From the IMG/VR virus record IMGVR_UViG_2663762849_000015: a stretch of DNA of 9,656 nucleotides; one strand, written 5' to 3'. Below the pieces are notes generated by a model that saw nothing but the letters and a program-made list of their open reading frames with translations, did not search any database and was not told the DNA's origin. The position numbers and the translations under genes are program-made. This stretch comes from a virus. Lineage: Duplodnaviria; Heunggongvirae; Uroviricota; Caudoviricetes. Shown here in pieces: positions 704-7,108 of the stretch. Each line of letters begins with the position of its first letter. The first letter of the stretch is position 1.

Positions 704-1867
704 TCAGAACTGATAAGTCATACCCACAGCAACGATATTATCTGTCGCAACACCGGCTTTCCGGGTAAATTCACTTTCATCAATCAGGTTAATTTTATAA
801 TCAACATAGGTGGACATATTCTTGTTAAAGTAATAAGTCGCTCCGACATCAATATATTTAACCAGATCCTGATCGCCATGGTTCACACCACCAACCATAA
901 CATCCTGTCCGCGGGACTGAAGGTAGGCCAGGGACGGGCGCAGACCAAAATCAAACTGATACTGCAGTACCGCTTCAAAGTTTTGCGCTTTATCTGCAAC
1001 TCCTTTATCACCAAAGGTCGTCAGATTCTGAGTTTCGGAATATGTTGTAGCCAGGTAAAGGTTGTCAGCATCGTATTTTAGTCCGACTCCCCACATCTCA
1101 GCGTGTTTACCTTTTGCAACACTACCGGAATCAACAACGATCTGCTTTTCAGTCACTTTACCGGTTAAAGGATCAGTTTGTTCAATCGTCAGAGTACCAT
1201 TCAGACCTTTTTCCTGATTATTGGTTCGGTCCGCATTAATATATGCGGCAACGATACCAAAACCTTCATATTCATAACTGGCTGAGAAACCGTGACCATC
1301 ACCATTAGCTTTCCGGAGATCACCCCGATCATTTTTACCCTGGTACTGTGCCGCAAAATTCAGGCCATCGACAAGCCCAAAGAAATCTGTATTACGATAG
1401 GTTAATACCCCGGAAGTACGGGCTGTCATGAAGTTATCGGTCTGGGTCCAGCCATCACCGCCAAACTCTGGTAATACGTCAGTATAAGAACCAACATCGT
1501 ACGCAATACCATAGTTACGACCATAATCAATGGTGCCAAACTCACCAAACTTCAGACCTGCAAATGCAAGACGGGTTTTATTACCCGCAGCACCCTCTGA
1601 TTCAGCTTTATTACCAGAGAACTGATATTCCCACTGACCAAAACCAGTCAACTGGTCATTAATCTGAGTTTCACCTTTAAAGCCCAGACGTGCGTATGTC
1701 TTATCTCCATCATCCCCCTTATCACTGGAGAAATAATGGAGTGCAGTTGCACGCCCATACACATCAAGTTTATTGCCATCTTTATTGTATACTTCTGCAG
1801 CCTGCGCCCCCGCTGCAAAAATTACAGCTGCTGCCACAGCTGAAAGTGCCACTGTCATTTTTTTCAT
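704..1867 (-). CDS. Outer membrane general porin, OmpC/OmpF/PhoE family (phage-borne NmpC/Lc/OmpD-like), apparently intact
   Basis: 387-aa ORF with ATG start at 1867 and AAGGA Shine-Dalgarno ~8 nt upstream. N-terminal signal peptide [23 protein letters not shown] followed by [15 protein letters not shown]. Porin hallmarks: [63 protein letters not shown]-terminal ...VAVGMTYQF ending in Phe. Visibly lower GC than the flanking phage genes. Confidence 0.93.
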
Positions 1868-2073: not shown

Positions 2074-2415
2074 TTATCTTATTACCTGTTCCATCATACA
2101 ACTGAAATCGCTGTACCGGGCGTTATCCGTAACACTCCACTCCCGGCACACCACCCTGACCGTCCGGTTATGTTTCGGGGGCTTCCACAAAAAAGCCCGG
2201 TAACCACCATGCCATGACAGAAACGCGGACAGTGCCTCCCGCTCAGCATCCGTTGTCACCCGAAAAACCACCTGAAAGGTCTTCAGTTGCGCATTCAGTC
2301 CTGCCGGACGACGTTGCTGATAACCGTCGCCAAACTTCACCGTCATCACCGACGGTTTCTCCGTCACCTGCATCCCTTCCCGGGGACACCAGTGAAGGGT
2401 CTTAATCTCATCCAC
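2074..2415 (-). CDS. M: Minor tail protein M (lambda gpM-like)
   Basis: 113 aa; ...IKTLHWCPREGMQVTEKPSVMTVKFGDGYQQRRPAGLNAQLKTFQV...FLWKPP... aligns with my recollection of lambda gpM (MKTFRWKVKPGMDV...VRFGDGYSQRAPAGLNANLKTY...FLWTPP). Start is GTG at 2415 preceded by GGAGG; it overlaps the 3' end of the tape measure gene. Confidence 0.9.
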   Translation of the reverse strand: MDEIKTLHWCPREGMQVTEKPSVMTVKFGDGYQQRRPAGLNAQLKTFQVVFRVTTDAEREALSAFLSWHGGYRAFLWKPPKHNRTVRVVCREWSVTDNARYSDFSCMMEQVIR

Positions 2416-5400
2416 TCAGCATTCCTCCGTCACGACGCATGGATAACATCACCGCCTGTACCCGCTGGTCAATCAGCTGCACAAGACTGCCTGCCGCCTC
2501 CGGCCCTATCTGTCCGTTAGCCCCGTCATTCTGAATGGCGATATGGTAGACCGGGGAATACACCAGACCGGCACTGCCGTTCATACTGCCCACCGCGCGT
2601 ACACCCAGCGAGCCATCCGCCGCCCGGGTCAGGGGCATTATGGCTTCAGGTCCTGCTTCCCCCATCAGCCCGGCCCCTTTTGCAAAGGCAAAGTACGTGG
2701 GCGTATCCACAATACTGTTGCTGTACGCGCTCAGGTTTGCCGAGGTATACACGCCGCCTTTTGCATTGGCCACCGCACCGCCCAGCCAGTCACCAATGCT
2801 GCCAATAAATCCTCCTGCACCGGACATACTGTTTGCCGCCGTCTTAATTCCGTTGACAATCGCGGCATTCATAAGAACTTTTGATATTTCCTGCAGCACT
2901 GATGAGGCCCAGTTGCGCCATTCCACTTTATTCCCGTTCAGCATCTCCGTGATGTTATTCACCATCCCTGAGATACCCTCCGTCGCAAGCTGTGCTGCCT
3001 GTGAGGCGTAATCGGACGCATTATCCACCCAGTTACTGAGCCCCTCCTGCAAGCCTTTCTGCCAGTCCGCACGCTGCACATCCGATTCGGCATAAAAGGC
3101 TGCCTGGTCCTTAAGGCGTTCGCTCAGATACTGCGCGTTCTGTGCCCGTGCCTGTCTGTAAAAATCCTCACTGATATCCCCGGCCTGATACTGAGACTGA
3201 AGGTCCGCATCCTTCTGGCGGAAGCTGTCGCGGATCTGCTGCAACTCCCGCATGCGTTCCCTGGCTCGTTCTCCCTGCCCGTACCCCAGCAGTTCGGCTT
3301 CATTTGATGCACGCGCAGCCACATTATCATTCTTCAGGGTCTCTTCCCGGGATCGCAACTGTTCCCGGATTTTTTGCTGGTCAATCAGGGCCGCGTTACG
3401 CAGCAGTTCCTGCTTCTGCATCTCCGTCAGGGTTTTCAGTTCGCCCTGCGCAGTCTGGTACTTCAGCTTCACCAGCTCTGTATTCTGACCCGCCAGTGCC
3501 AGTTGCTCTTTCTGCTGCTTCAGTAGCCGGGAAAAACTGTCTTCCGCTTTTTCCGTCTCTGATTTTCCACCCCGGGATTTGGGTTTGTTCGCCTCGTTAT
3601 TACGCCAGGCTTCCAGAGCATTACTGATATAACGCTGTCTCGCCTCCTGATACGAATCCCCCACAAAACCAAGGTCATCCGCCGCATACCCCAGCCGGGC
3701 ACGCTCTTTTTCCTCCCCCTTCAGTCGGGACAGGGCCAGCTCACGTTCTGTTTTTGTCAGGGCGCTCTGCTGTTTATCATCCAGGGTGGCCTGCGGCAGC
3801 CGTAACGGTACATTCACCAGTCCCTGACGCTGCTGAAGCAGTTCATTCCCCAGCCCCAGCAGACGGTTGAATTCCGTATGCTGGCCGTTCATGACCAGCA
3901 GTGACTGATACGCTTTATTCTGCTCTGCCGCCTGCTGACGAATTAACGCCACACGGCGATCTTCCAGTCCGGCAAGCACATCCTGAATGGACTGCGCCTT
4001 TTCCTGCATCTGTGCCAGACGGGACTGCTCAACAGCAAGCTGCTCTGTTGCCTGAGCAAGCCCTTCCGTTACAGTTTTCACCGAGGTCAGATGGTTTATC
4101 ATGAATCCGTCACCGGTCGTCCAGCCCGGGTTCGCCAGAACATACTGATATCCTGCGATTTTTTCCTGCAGGGATTTCACCCGACTGGCCTGTTCATCAA
4201 TCAGCCGGTTCTGCTCTGTCAGCGCCGCCCGTGTTCGTCCTTCATTATCTGAGGCTTCAGGCAAAGACATTGACGGCGTTTTATGCGCGATTTCATCTAT
4301 CGTCAGTGCATACTGGCGCGCTGACTCCCTGGCCTGCTCCTGATTCTGGTACAGCGTATACCATGCTGCTGCCCCCAGCATCACCAGTCCGGGTACGCCA
4401 CCAACCAGTCCCAACGCACCAGTCATCAGACGTGAGCCCACCGCCGTTGTACTGTTCAGCGCATTCTGGGCTGCGGTTCTGGCAGCAATATTTCTGTTCA
4501 GGCGTTCCTGTGTGGCCGCCAGACGGGCTTCTGCAGCAATCTGCATCTCCGTCCCGCGGGCTGCCGCCACAGCCTGCTGTGCACGGTACACGGCTGCCCT
4601 TGCCCGCGCCGTGGCAATCTGCGTCCCCCTGAGCTGTGCTTCCGCCAGTGCCACTTCATTACGTGCTGCCGTCACAAGTCCTGCCGTGGCAGACACCGCT
4701 CCGGAGGCCATATTGCCAAAGTACCGGGCAACCCCGACGGCAACCAGCGCCCCCGCTGCTGTTGCCACATTATCAATATTACCGGCAACACCGTTCAGCA
4801 CGCCGGAGAGCGTTTTCGTCGCTCCGCTGGCTTCATTCGCGCCACCCACCCAGGCCATAAAGGCGTTTTCCACCTTTGTGATCCCGTCAGAGACCGTTTC
4901 CGGCATGGCGGCATATTCATCACGCAATACCCCCAGCTGGCTGATTAACGCAGGAACGACTTTATCCGCCGTCAGTTTGCCGTCGTCCGCCATCGCCTTA
5001 AGGTCTTTACGGGCCACGCCCATACCCGCAGCCAGTGCACGTATGATCCGGTCTCCGCTTTCATTGACCGAATTAAATTCCTCACCCCGTAACACACCCT
5101 GTGCCAGCGCCTGGCTGAACTGGGTGATCACCGAGCCCGCCTCTGCCGTACTGGCACCGGAGATTTTCAGCCCCGTGGAAATGGCCTCCGTCACCTTCAG
5201 TACATCACCGGCACTGTAGCCATATTCACGCATTGAGGCTGCCGAGCGGGCAAACAGGGCCGCATTATCTGAAAATGCCGTGCCCGTCCGCTGGCTGATA
5301 TCCATCAGCACTTTCTGTGATGACGAAAATTCATCGGATGACTGCGACGCCTGTTTCAGTCGGGCATTCACGGAACTCCATTCATCGGCCAGAGAAATCA

Positions 5401-5650
5401 GGTGTCCGGTGGCAAAGGCACCTGCAAATGCCCCCGCCGTTCCGGCAGCTGAAGCGCGGATTTCCGTCAACTGGCTGTTCAGCTCAGCCAGGGCGCGTCG
5501 CTGCTCCCGGGCGACTGCGGCAGCCTGACGCCCGCCATTCTGCAGGGTCCGGTAATATTCACTGCCCATGCGGGCAGCCCGCTGGATCTCCGACTGGAAT
5601 GACTGCGAATTTGCCGAAATTTTGATAATCAGTTCACGTAACGTCGCCAT
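2408..5650 (-). CDS. H: Tail length tape measure protein (lambda gpH-like)
   Basis: 1080-aa ORF with ATG at 5650 preceded by GGAGAAAGG. Long Ala/Gln/Glu-rich, predicted coiled-coil sequence with a central hydrophobic Gly-rich segment (LMTGALGLVGGVPGLVMLGAAAWYTLY). Positioned between the G/GT chaperone and M as in lambda. Confidence 0.93.
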   Translation of the reverse strand: MATLRELIIKISANSQSFQSEIQRAARMGSEYYRTLQNGGRQAAAVAREQRRALAELNSQLTEIRASAAGTAGAFAGAFATGHLISLADEWSSVNARLKQASQSSDEFSSSQKVLMDISQRTGTAFSDNAALFARSAASMREYGYSAGDVLKVTEAISTGLKISGASTAEAGSVITQFSQALAQGVLRGEEFNSVNESGDRIIRALAAGMGVARKDLKAMADDGKLTADKVVPALISQLGVLRDEYAAMPETVSDGITKVENAFMAWVGGANEASGATKTLSGVLNGVAGNIDNVATAAGALVAVGVARYFGNMASGAVSATAGLVTAARNEVALAEAQLRGTQIATARARAAVYRAQQAVAAARGTEMQIAAEARLAATQERLNRNIAARTAAQNALNSTTAVGSRLMTGALGLVGGVPGLVMLGAAAWYTLYQNQEQARESARQYALTIDEIAHKTPSMSLPEASDNEGRTRAALTEQNRLIDEQASRVKSLQEKIAGYQYVLANPGWTTGDGFMINHLTSVKTVTEGLAQATEQLAVEQSRLAQMQEKAQSIQDVLAGLEDRRVALIRQQAAEQNKAYQSLLVMNGQHTEFNRLLGLGNELLQQRQGLVNVPLRLPQATLDDKQQSALTKTERELALSRLKGEEKERARLGYAADDLGFVGDSYQEARQRYISNALEAWRNNEANKPKSRGGKSETEKAEDSFSRLLKQQKEQLALAGQNTELVKLKYQTAQGELKTLTEMQKQELLRNAALIDQQKIREQLRSREETLKNDNVAARASNEAELLGYGQGERARERMRELQQIRDSFRQKDADLQSQYQAGDISEDFYRQARAQNAQYLSERLKDQAAFYAESDVQRADWQKGLQEGLSNWVDNASDYASQAAQLATEGISGMVNNITEMLNGNKVEWRNWASSVLQEISKVLMNAAIVNGIKTAANSMSGAGGFIGSIGDWLGGAVANAKGGVYTSANLSAYSNSIVDTPTYFAFAKGAGLMGEAGPEAIMPLTRAADGSLGVRAVGSMNGSAGLVYSPVYHIAIQNDGANGQIGPEAAGSLVQLIDQRVQAVMLSMRRDGGMLSG

Positions 5651-5668
5651 TCACCTTTCTCCGGGCGT

Positions 5669-5689
5669 AAAAAAACCGCCTCAGCGGTT
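5669..5689 (-). terminator. Terminator-like hairpin plus U-run between GT stop and tape measure start (possible attenuator)
   Basis: Minus strand reads AACCGC-UGAG-GCGGUU followed by a U-run (plus 5669-5675 is aaaaaaa): 6-bp stem, 4-nt loop. Lies between the T-frame stop (5698-5700) and the H Shine-Dalgarno. Confidence 0.4.
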
Positions 5690-5697
5690 CTCATCAT

Positions 5698-6377
5698 TCA
5701 TGACTGTGCTGCAAAGCTCAGCGCGTCTTCCAGCGCCGCAAACGGATCCACCTCCGGCTTATCCTCATCCTCGCCCCAGCAGAGCATGGCGTCCTTCAGT
5801 GCAACATTCATCCCCTGTGCCCCGAAAACCGCTTTCACGATCTGTGCATTACGGATATCCCCGCGCTCATCACCCAGCGGGGATACCCTGTCGAACTCCA
5901 TCCACATCATCGCCTCGCTCGCACTCAGGCTGTGCCGCAGTTCGGATAAGGTGCGCCCCAGACGGAGCGCAAGTCGCATCAGAAAGCGAATTTCCGGGCG
6001 GGCTACTTTTTTCTGGCCGACTCTGCATCAGCGATCAGTTCCAGTGCCTGACGCAGCAACCGGGCATGTACCGGACCATAGACGGCCAGCACCTGCTCAC
6101 GGTCGTCCGGAGTGAACACCCGTTGCAGGTCAGTATCACACAGGACATCGCAGAACAGCGTCACATCCGCTTCCAGGTTACGGCGGGTTTTCGCCACCAC
6201 CGACAGGGTATCGTCATCCTCTCCATCACCATTGAGCACTTCCTGCCACAGATACCAGGCCTCTGCCGAAGGCTCCCGCAGCACCACGCTGACATTTCTC
6301 CATTCCGGCACCTTCACCGTTTTATGACGGAACCCCGACAGTCTGGCCAGCGCCAGTGTTTTCAGATCCTTTTTCAT
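5698..6377 (-). CDS. Tail assembly chaperone GT fusion made by programmed -1 ribosomal frameshift (G frame 6377..~6009, then T frame to 5698)
   Basis: The T reading frame (ORF-track fragment 5698..5979) is open upstream to 6027 and overlaps the G 3' end in the -1 frame. The overlap contains the heptamer A AAA AAG (minus strand, plus coordinates 6012..6006) positioned as X XXY YYZ in the G frame. A slip gives ...ESARKK-VARPEIRFLMRLALRLG... This matches the conserved G/GT frameshift architecture of long-tailed phages. Confidence 0.75.
6003..6377 (-). CDS. G: Tail assembly chaperone G (zero-frame product)
   Basis: The ORF track gives 6003..6425, but the first 16 codons overlap the V gene 3' end. 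The likely start is the internal ATG at 6377 (MKKDLKTLALARLSGF...), preceded by AAGGGGA and lying 14 nt after the V stop. Ends ...ESARKK-TAG at the slippery site. Position between V and H matches lambda G. Confidence 0.75.
   Translation of the reverse strand: MKKDLKTLALARLSGFRHKTVKVPEWRNVSVVLREPSAEAWYLWQEVLNGDGEDDDTLSVVAKTRRNLEADVTLFCDVLCDTDLQRVFTPDDREQVLAVYGPVHARLLRQALELIADAESARKK
6006..6012 (-). other. -1 frameshift slippery heptamer A_AAA_AAG
   Basis: Plus 6006-6012 ctttttt is AAAAAAG on the minus strand; zero-frame codons are AAA AAG followed by TAG stop, and the -1 frame continues open for ~100 codons. Confidence 0.7.
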
Positions 6378-6391
6378 GATGACCCATCCCC

Positions 6392-7108
6392 TTATCCGGC
6401 GGCTGCGCTCACTGTCACGGTGCATTCAAAAGACGTCACACTCTGTGCTTTCTCTGCCGAATCGGTCACCACGCAGGTATATTTCCCCGCATCAGCGGAC
6501 TGCGCACCTGGCTTACTGAAGGTGTCTGTCGTCTGACCGTCAACCGGCTGACCATCCTTCTTCCAGGCGTATTTATACGGCGGCGTTCCCCCGTTGGCAC
6601 TGACTGACATTGTCAGCAGCGCACCGGTATTCACGGTAAGTGTCTTATCCAGATTTTTCCCAAACGCCAGCGGTACCACAAAGGACACCGGTTTGCCTTT
6701 CAGACGCAGTGAAAACGTTGCTGCCACCACGCCGTTGGTACCGGATGACCAGGTGTGCTGACGCACTTCCGCCAGGAACTTAAAGCCCTTACCGGACGGA
6801 AACAGCACCTTAAACGCATACAACGCGTCATTGTCATAGGCATCACGCAGGGCGTTCTGGGCCTGATTCAGATAAAAATTACCCGACATGGAAATCTCGG
6901 ACGACGCCCCCAGACCGTTGATGTTCTCCTGCTCTGTGGAGCAGAGCGTGGTCACATCAATATCCTGTTTCTGACCGGCGGTGAACTGGACTTCCTTGAT
7001 AGTGCAGTCCAGGCGCAGATATTCCGCCTTATCCATAGTTTCAGCAGTCGCCGGGGCAGATGAAATCATCACCTGCGTCAGCTGTGAGCGTTCATACAAA
7101 GCAGACAT
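6392..7108 (-). CDS. V: Major tail (tube) protein, gpV-equivalent, with C-terminal Ig-like domain
   Basis: 238 aa; ATG at 7108 with perfect AGGAGG Shine-Dalgarno (plus 7113-7118 cctcct). Located between the tail-terminator-like gene and G. C-terminal ~80 aa (GTPPYKYAWKKDGQPVDGQTTDTFSKPGAQSADAGKYTCVVTDSAEKAQSVTSFECTVTV) has the Ig I-set-like pattern seen on phage tail proteins. Confidence 0.85.
   Translation of the reverse strand: MSALYERSQLTQVMISSAPATAETMDKAEYLRLDCTIKEVQFTAGQKQDIDVTTLCSTEQENINGLGASSEISMSGNFYLNQAQNALRDAYDNDALYAFKVLFPSGKGFKFLAEVRQHTWSSGTNGVVAATFSLRLKGKPVSFVVPLAFGKNLDKTLTVNTGALLTMSVSANGGTPPYKYAWKKDGQPVDGQTTDTFSKPGAQSADAGKYTCVVTDSAEKAQSVTSFECTVTVSAAAG

Follow-up and report, generated by a model that had tools for sequence, protein, structure and literature searches.

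The tail assembly chaperone frames G and T of an HK97-like, Stx-type lambdoid prophage of Escherichia coli: a known lambda/HK97-type programmed −1 frameshift

The tail module and its two chaperone frames

The window, by which we mean the whole 9,656-nt stretch of viral DNA analyzed here, carries on its minus strand a major tail protein gene (6392..7108), followed by the tail assembly chaperone gene G (6003..6377), a second chaperone frame, T (5698..6027), and the tail tape measure gene (2408..5650). The G/T pair is therefore placed between the major tail and tape-measure genes, as the G/GT paradigm demands (GT being the fusion of the two frames). The product of the upstream neighbor is annotated as 'major tail subunit'; its matches to Phage_TTP_11 and Phage_tail_2 fall below the Pfam curated cut-offs and those to Ig domains lie above them. 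Its C-terminal Ig-like domain (Ig_3, Ig_2 and I-set matches, residues ~150-225) is like that of many lambdoid tail tube proteins. The downstream neighbor codes for a tape measure protein of 1080 aa (PF06120, PF20155, PF09718), which is the expected binding partner of G and GT. The region is 98–99% identical to Stx1a-, Stx2a- and Stx2c-converting phages, JLK-2012, YYZ-2008 and 2851, and of 5426 complete E. coli genomes 1246 have the tail module. The prophage whose tail module the window carries is a lambdoid one of E. coli, HK97-like and of the Stx type.

Inside this tail operon an OmpC-family porin gene (704..1867, minus strand, 387 aa; PF00267, E=1.3e-140) is flanked by the minor tail gene M (2074..2415) on one side and by L on the other, all in one orientation, and looks like a phage-borne porin moron. 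The same M-porin-L-K-I-J order, with the porin annotated 'ompC' in E. coli S1-CAM-02-A, was recovered in 92 complete genomes of E. coli, where the identity to the window copy does not exceed 92.6%. In the gap between the T stop and the tape-measure start, a separate folding run gave a 9-bp hairpin followed by a U-run (~5665..5692, minus strand; GAGAACCGC-UGAG-GCGGUUUUUUU; z=−1.66), for which the terminator scan made no call. The same scan placed a terminator-like hairpin at 7131..7145 (minus strand), just upstream of the major tail gene. Putative terminators are annotated at the equivalent positions in the HK97 record, and these terminator-like hairpins are presumably read through by Q-modified polymerase.

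As the 0-frame product, G is a tail assembly chaperone of the HK97 gp13 type with 124 aa and a mass of ~14.1 kDa. It matches PF06222 (Phage_TAC_1) with E=1.5e-61 and 206.2 bits against a gathering cut-off of 25, covering positions 1–124 of 124; it further matches PDB 2ob9, 'Tail assembly chaperone' (E=2.3e-46), and is ~63% identical to HK97 gp13. The open reading frame list gives G as 6003..6425 (140 aa), extended at the N-terminus by 16 codons from an ATG within the major tail gene, and T as an independent frame of 93 aa (5698..5979); the first-pass annotation had called the extension spurious and noted that the fusion was missed, and we find both remarks to be correct. The start of G at 6377 is supported by the RefSeq coding sequence, which is 375 nt long and lies in the same place, and by the end-to-end coverage of PF06222. 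The 90% cluster to which the G protein belongs is represented by a 238-aa major tail subunit and has such subunits among its members too, apparently an artefact of clustering that may stem from read-through or from the merging of gene calls.

The −1 frame relative to G is open from 6027 down to a TGA at 5700..5698 (minus strand) and is bounded upstream by a TGA at 6030..6028, limits that had been proposed at first pass and that we recovered by direct reading and translation. The segment that it encodes had been described as T-like, and this holds: it matches PF06223 (Phage_tail_T) with E=6.1e-19 and 68.7 bits against a gathering cut-off of 25.9, and lambda T falls in the same family (54.1 bits, E=2.1e-14). 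The same annotation had put forward an alignment with the G/GT pairs of lambda and HK97. The identity to HK97 G is given above; for T, a pairwise BLASTP of the window T against lambda T returned no alignment, so the homology to lambda T is visible at the profile level only. In PHROG 14766 (224 positions), G matches 2–122 and T matches 125–224; since both halves match it, PHROG 14766 is a family of fused GT proteins. A scan of G and T against NCBIfam recovered no families.

The frameshift site, its measurement and its conservation

Direct reading of the 3′ end of G gives GCC (6017-6015) AGA AAA AAG TAG, just as the first-pass annotation had it. In the X_XXY_YYZ register with the G frame this contains the slippery heptamer A_AAA_AAG at 6006..6012 on the minus strand (A at 6012, AAA at 6011-6009, AAG at 6008-6006), and the 0-frame TAG stop of G (6003..6005) follows directly 3′ of it. 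The −1-frame TGA at 6028..6030 sets the upstream limit of the overlap between the two frames, which spans only 25 nt (8 codons); any shift from G to T must therefore occur inside these 25 nt. On a −1 slip base 6006 is read twice and the new frame continues as GTA GCC CGC..., giving a T segment of 102 aa (5698..6006, minus strand; VARPEIRFLMRLALRLGRT...AAQS) before the TGA. The predicted GT fusion accordingly amounts to 124 + 102 = 226 aa with a computed mass of 25.5 kDa, against the ~25 kDa anticipated, and its junction, ...ARKK-VARPEIR, is the one that had been foreseen.

The first-pass annotation had called for a frameshift reporter carrying this site, and a suitable assay turns out to be already in print. 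Antonov et al. 2013 (NAR 41:6514, PMC3711429) described a GeneTack cluster, 'phage tail assembly chaperone' (Phage_TAC), of 41 genes similar to HK97 and assayed two Phage_TAC cassettes in a GST-MBP reporter in E. coli. The 75-nt insert of one of them, fs-gene 15618692, matches window positions 5958..6032 (minus strand) base for base and gave 7% ± 0.79 −1 frameshifting in E. coli (their Table S2), a figure that belongs to a short insert in a heterologous reporter fusion, so that native efficiency could differ. Between this cassette and the window there is no relevant difference beyond its being a reporter construct and not the native operon. The second cassette, from a relative with G_GGA_AAG_CCG_TAA, gave 6% (PMC3711429). 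The frameshift signal was hence already known, including an experimental measurement on the same bases.

Several counts bear on the possibility that the heptamer arose by chance. In all 9.6 kb of the window the coding strand has the string AAAAAAG a single time, and among the 7 in-frame X_XXY_YYZ heptamers of any kind in the ~2680 codons of the window genes the G/T site is the only one of the form X_XXA_AAG. Codon shuffling of G yielded any in-frame X_XXY_YYZ within the last 8 codons at P = 0.012, and A_AAA_AAG in that interval at P = 0.001. The first A of the heptamer is contributed by AGA, which accounts for 10 of the 165 Arg codons in the window's phage genes; such low use agrees with selection having acted on the heptamer and not on the codon as such. 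Across 78 near-identical IMG/VR loci the heptamer and the TAG do not change, whereas substitutions are seen in the flanking codons (GCC to GTC or GCA, GAG to GGG, TCG to GCG); this viral contig scan recovered almost only near-identical E. coli prophages, and it shows site invariance with little diversity.

Deeper divergence was covered with a comparison set of 10 reference phages and 63 loci, the latter from different bacterial species in GTDB species-representative genomes, found with an alignment of 6 enterobacterial sequences and showing 44–64% identity to G. In 60 of these 63 loci the −1 frame contains the T motif LALR(L/M)G(R/K)T, and the same 60 have exactly one in-frame A_AAG in the overlap, which precedes the motif by a constant 11–12 codons. 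The shift site is the canonical A_AAA_AAG in 37 of the 60, the equally canonical lambda heptamer G_GGA_AAG in 5, and the HK97-type G_GAA_AAG in 7 (HK97 itself and 6 others); the other 11 have N_GCA_AAG, G_GTA_AAG or A_GAA_AAG, in which the P-site codon cannot re-pair. A strict X_XXY_YYZ is absent, and A_AAG alone is kept, in 18 of the 60 species-level relatives. Among tetramer motifs, A_AAG has been described as the one with the highest efficiency (PMC4066793). Phages of Enterobacterales and of Burkholderia alike preserve the −1 arrangement and a slippery A_AAG at the homologous site, and the records of HK97 and Burkholderia phage Bcep176 annotate the frameshift fusion explicitly.

These data also decide on the reading in which the heptamer is accidental, or in which the split between G and T is a frameshift mutation that turned a once-continuous gene into a pseudogene. 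Decay of the locus does occur in some genomes, as seen in the 3 of 63 loci (L112, L138 and L148) that are disrupted or differently framed; however, the codon-shuffle probabilities (P 0.001–0.012), the invariance of the site in the 78 close relatives, and the presence of the same −1 arrangement in 60 of 63 species-level loci and in the ~1246 of 5426 complete E. coli genomes carrying the module all stand against it. We regard this reading as vanishingly improbable, and indeed refuted by the conservation data. As for the three exceptional loci themselves, most of G in L148 (Candidatus Symbiopectobacterium endolongispinus) lies in the T frame (...DAEIAKKKVTQPGMQFLM...) with its N-terminal part out of frame, and the frame relations of L112 and L138 are also altered; they are probably decaying prophage copies or assembly indels.

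From G to GT: ribosomal slippage and its alternatives

The protein families, gene order, conservation and published reporter all agree with the G/GT strategy of long-tailed phages that the first-pass annotation had proposed for this pair. The anatomy of the site, the homology of both frames, their conservation and the identity to a frameshifting cassette are all direct observations, and G and GT of the window represent the known lambda/HK97-type programmed −1 frameshift, a real but ordinary instance of it. Conservation of the G-T frameshift is wide among long-tailed phages, in which G and GT stand at a ratio near 30:1, and A_AAA_AAG, the dnaX site, is among the most shift-prone sequences in E. 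coli (PMC5009743). We hold with high confidence that a ribosomal −1 slip on A_AAA_AAG yields a minor GT beside the main G in this HK97-like prophage tail module. Under such a mechanism most ribosomes translating G, roughly 93% of them, would terminate at the TAG (6005..6003) and release the 124-aa chaperone. With AAA and AAG in the P and A sites, a few percent would slip back by one base, as is possible because both tRNA-Lys re-pair with AAA in the −1 frame; these shifted ribosomes would then pass the TAG and append the 102-aa T domain, producing the 226-aa GT.

The identical protein would result if GT came mainly from transcriptional slippage, with RNA polymerase adding one A within the A6 run. 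The window does have a run of six A, some relatives carry 7–8 A in theirs, and the published GST-MBP assay does not separate the ribosomal from the transcriptional route; moreover, in another gene family of the same study efficiency rose with the length of the A run, from 10% with 7 A to 40% with 9 A and 63% with 11 A (PMC3711429). Yet the loci with G_GGA_AAG, G_GAA_AAG or GCA_AAG keep the architecture without a long enough homopolymer, the G_GGA_AAG cassette still shifts at 6%, and what is conserved is the in-frame A_AAG register and not the run length. For E. coli RNA polymerase to slip productively, a run of about 9 or more is usually required, and A_AAA_AAG is well established in E. coli as a site of ribosomal shifting. 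Since the G_GGA_AAG and GCA_AAG relatives preserve the architecture, and the G_GGA_AAG cassette preserves the efficiency, the conserved mechanism is ribosomal, and we judge a mainly transcriptional origin of GT to be very improbable.

A different objection is that G and T are simply two independent genes, with T initiated at the ATG at 5977..5979 (minus strand) and the fusion biologically irrelevant. Public annotations do start a separate T at this ATG: RefSeq and phage records list a 93-aa 'tail assembly protein T', and that exact protein is found on at least 1000 contigs, the fusion on none. Direct reading, however, finds no SD-like tetramer upstream of the ATG, and the nine T-frame codons preceding it are conserved across species as V-x-x-P-x-x-x-F-L, so that the ATG at 5979 is probably an internal Met of a conserved F-L-M motif. 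Two loci (L117 and L128) have no ATG at all before the LALR motif. Further points against independent initiation are the 7% frameshifting of the identical sequence, the fusions annotated in HK97 and Bcep176, and the fused PHROG 14766 that matches both halves. Lambda itself reportedly makes no free T (Levin et al. 1993). From the conserved upstream codons, the loci without an ATG and the lack of an SD-like sequence it follows that T is entered by frameshift and not by initiation, and we consider an independent T extremely improbable. The combination against which the first-pass annotation had staked its claim, namely a T frame without any likeness to T segments together with an independently initiated T protein, is hence not what we find at this locus.

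If GT is made by the ribosomal route, its role may be pictured after the better-known phages. By analogy with lambda, many copies of G and few of GT would coat the tape-measure protein, and, as in lambda and HK97, the T domain of GT would recruit the major tail protein; it is this coating and recruitment for which tail assembly would need a fixed G:GT ratio, set by the frameshift. In lambda, tail assembly depends on both G and GT at a fixed ratio, and virions contain neither (PMC5009743); going by lambda, neither protein of the window would end up in the virion. What GT does in assembly, that T does not occur free, and exactly how efficient the shift is on the native full-length mRNA are points that we infer from lambda and HK97.

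Relatives of the signal, candidate stimulators and the adjacent stop codon

Of the known systems, HK97 gp13/gp14 (NC_002167, PDB 2ob9) resembles the window in the PF06222 family of its G (E=1.2e-60 for HK97 vs 1.5e-61 for the window), in gene order, and in having T in the −1 frame with the shift site 11 codons before LALR(L/M)GRT. Unlike the window, with its canonical A_AAA_AAG and TAG directly after, HK97 has CGG_GAA_AAG (G_GAA_AAG), which is not a strict X_XXY_YYZ, and its G frame stops five codons later; moreover, T and the tape-measure gene are separated in HK97 by a moron (gp15), and the window has none there. Lambda G/GT (Levin, Hendrix & Casjens 1993; Xu, Hendrix & Duda 2004, 2013, 2014) shares the strategy, the position, a T in PF06223 and a low-efficiency −1 event near the end of G, the window site being one without a detected flanking stimulator. 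It differs in that its G belongs to PF06894, its overlap is 64 nt against 25 nt in the window, and its heptamer is G_GGA_AAG, which the first-pass annotation had cited and which is indeed present in the lambda G/T overlap. Burkholderia phage Bcep176 gp69/gp69′ has A_AAA_AAG at the homologous site, a joined coding sequence labeled 'lambda T equivalent' and a G in PF06222; in contrast to the window, to which it is ~35% identical and where the stop comes at once, its G frame runs 12 codons past the heptamer.

The heptamer had also been described as dnaX-type, and A_AAA_AAG is identical to the site of E. coli dnaX gamma/tau, with the same tRNA-Lys slippage chemistry. However, in dnaX the heptamer is preceded by an SD-like stimulator and followed by a stem-loop, and shifting amounts to ~50%, whereas the window has neither and stands at ~7%; furthermore, the shifted product is the shorter one in dnaX and the longer one in the window. 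Of the composite dnaX-type signal, the window thus has the heptamer and lacks both the upstream SD-like element and the downstream stem-loop. A 113-nt stretch beginning with the heptamer is no more stable when folded than its shuffled versions (z=−0.16), and RNAalifold returned 0 consensus pairs across 39 distinct homologous junctions. In the interval 6–17 nt upstream, where an SD-like stimulator would lie, the sequence 6029..6018 is GATGCAGAGTCG, which by direct reading contains no GGAG, GAGG, AGGA or AAGG. With neither a structure nor an SD-like element found in these searches, the frameshift signal appears to be a bare heptamer, which fits a low-efficiency shift such as that of lambda. A local GCGCUCC...GGGGCGC hairpin was weighed as a stimulator and rejected; it lies ~35 nt downstream, within the conserved LALRLGR codons.

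The remaining candidate is the stop codon itself, and a role for the adjacent TAG as a pausing or stimulatory element is possible, if speculative and unproven. A 0-frame stop directly follows AAG in 35 of the 60 homologous loci and lies 1–8 codons further in the remainder; it adjoins AAG in 24 of the 37 A_AAA_AAG loci and in all 11 loci whose P-site codon is unable to re-pair, counts that are not phylogenetically independent across loci. With a gap of one codon, the G_GGA_AAG_CCG_TAA cassette reached an efficiency similar to that of the one without (6% vs 7%). If the stop does stimulate, it would most plausibly do so in the non-canonical relatives; the 11 loci without P-site re-pairing, all with an adjacent stop, suggest single-tRNA slippage helped by the stop. 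We accordingly entertain, as a tentative and on balance unlikely proposal, that the stop right after A_AAG is a functional '-1 shifty stop', at which slow decoding by release factor would give the Lys-tRNA(s) time to slip and would offset the missing half-heptamer in the N_GCA_AAG, G_GTA_AAG and A_GAA_AAG relatives. If true, the chaperone family would be a natural series for stop-codon-assisted single-tRNA −1 slippage.

With the signal known and measured, the only remaining gap is one of annotation. A collection of 15 billion proteins contains the exact G and T proteins and, when searched for the 226-aa GT fusion, lacked it; in RefSeq and in Stx-type phage records, G and T stand as two genes. 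It is textbook biology that the G/GT frameshift fixes the proportion of the two chaperones which the building of a long phage tail requires. About one in four complete E. coli genomes carries the tail module in question, and Stx-converting EHEC prophages are among those that have it. Annotating the pair as a join with ribosomal_slippage would put right the proteome of these prophages, which are of medical importance.
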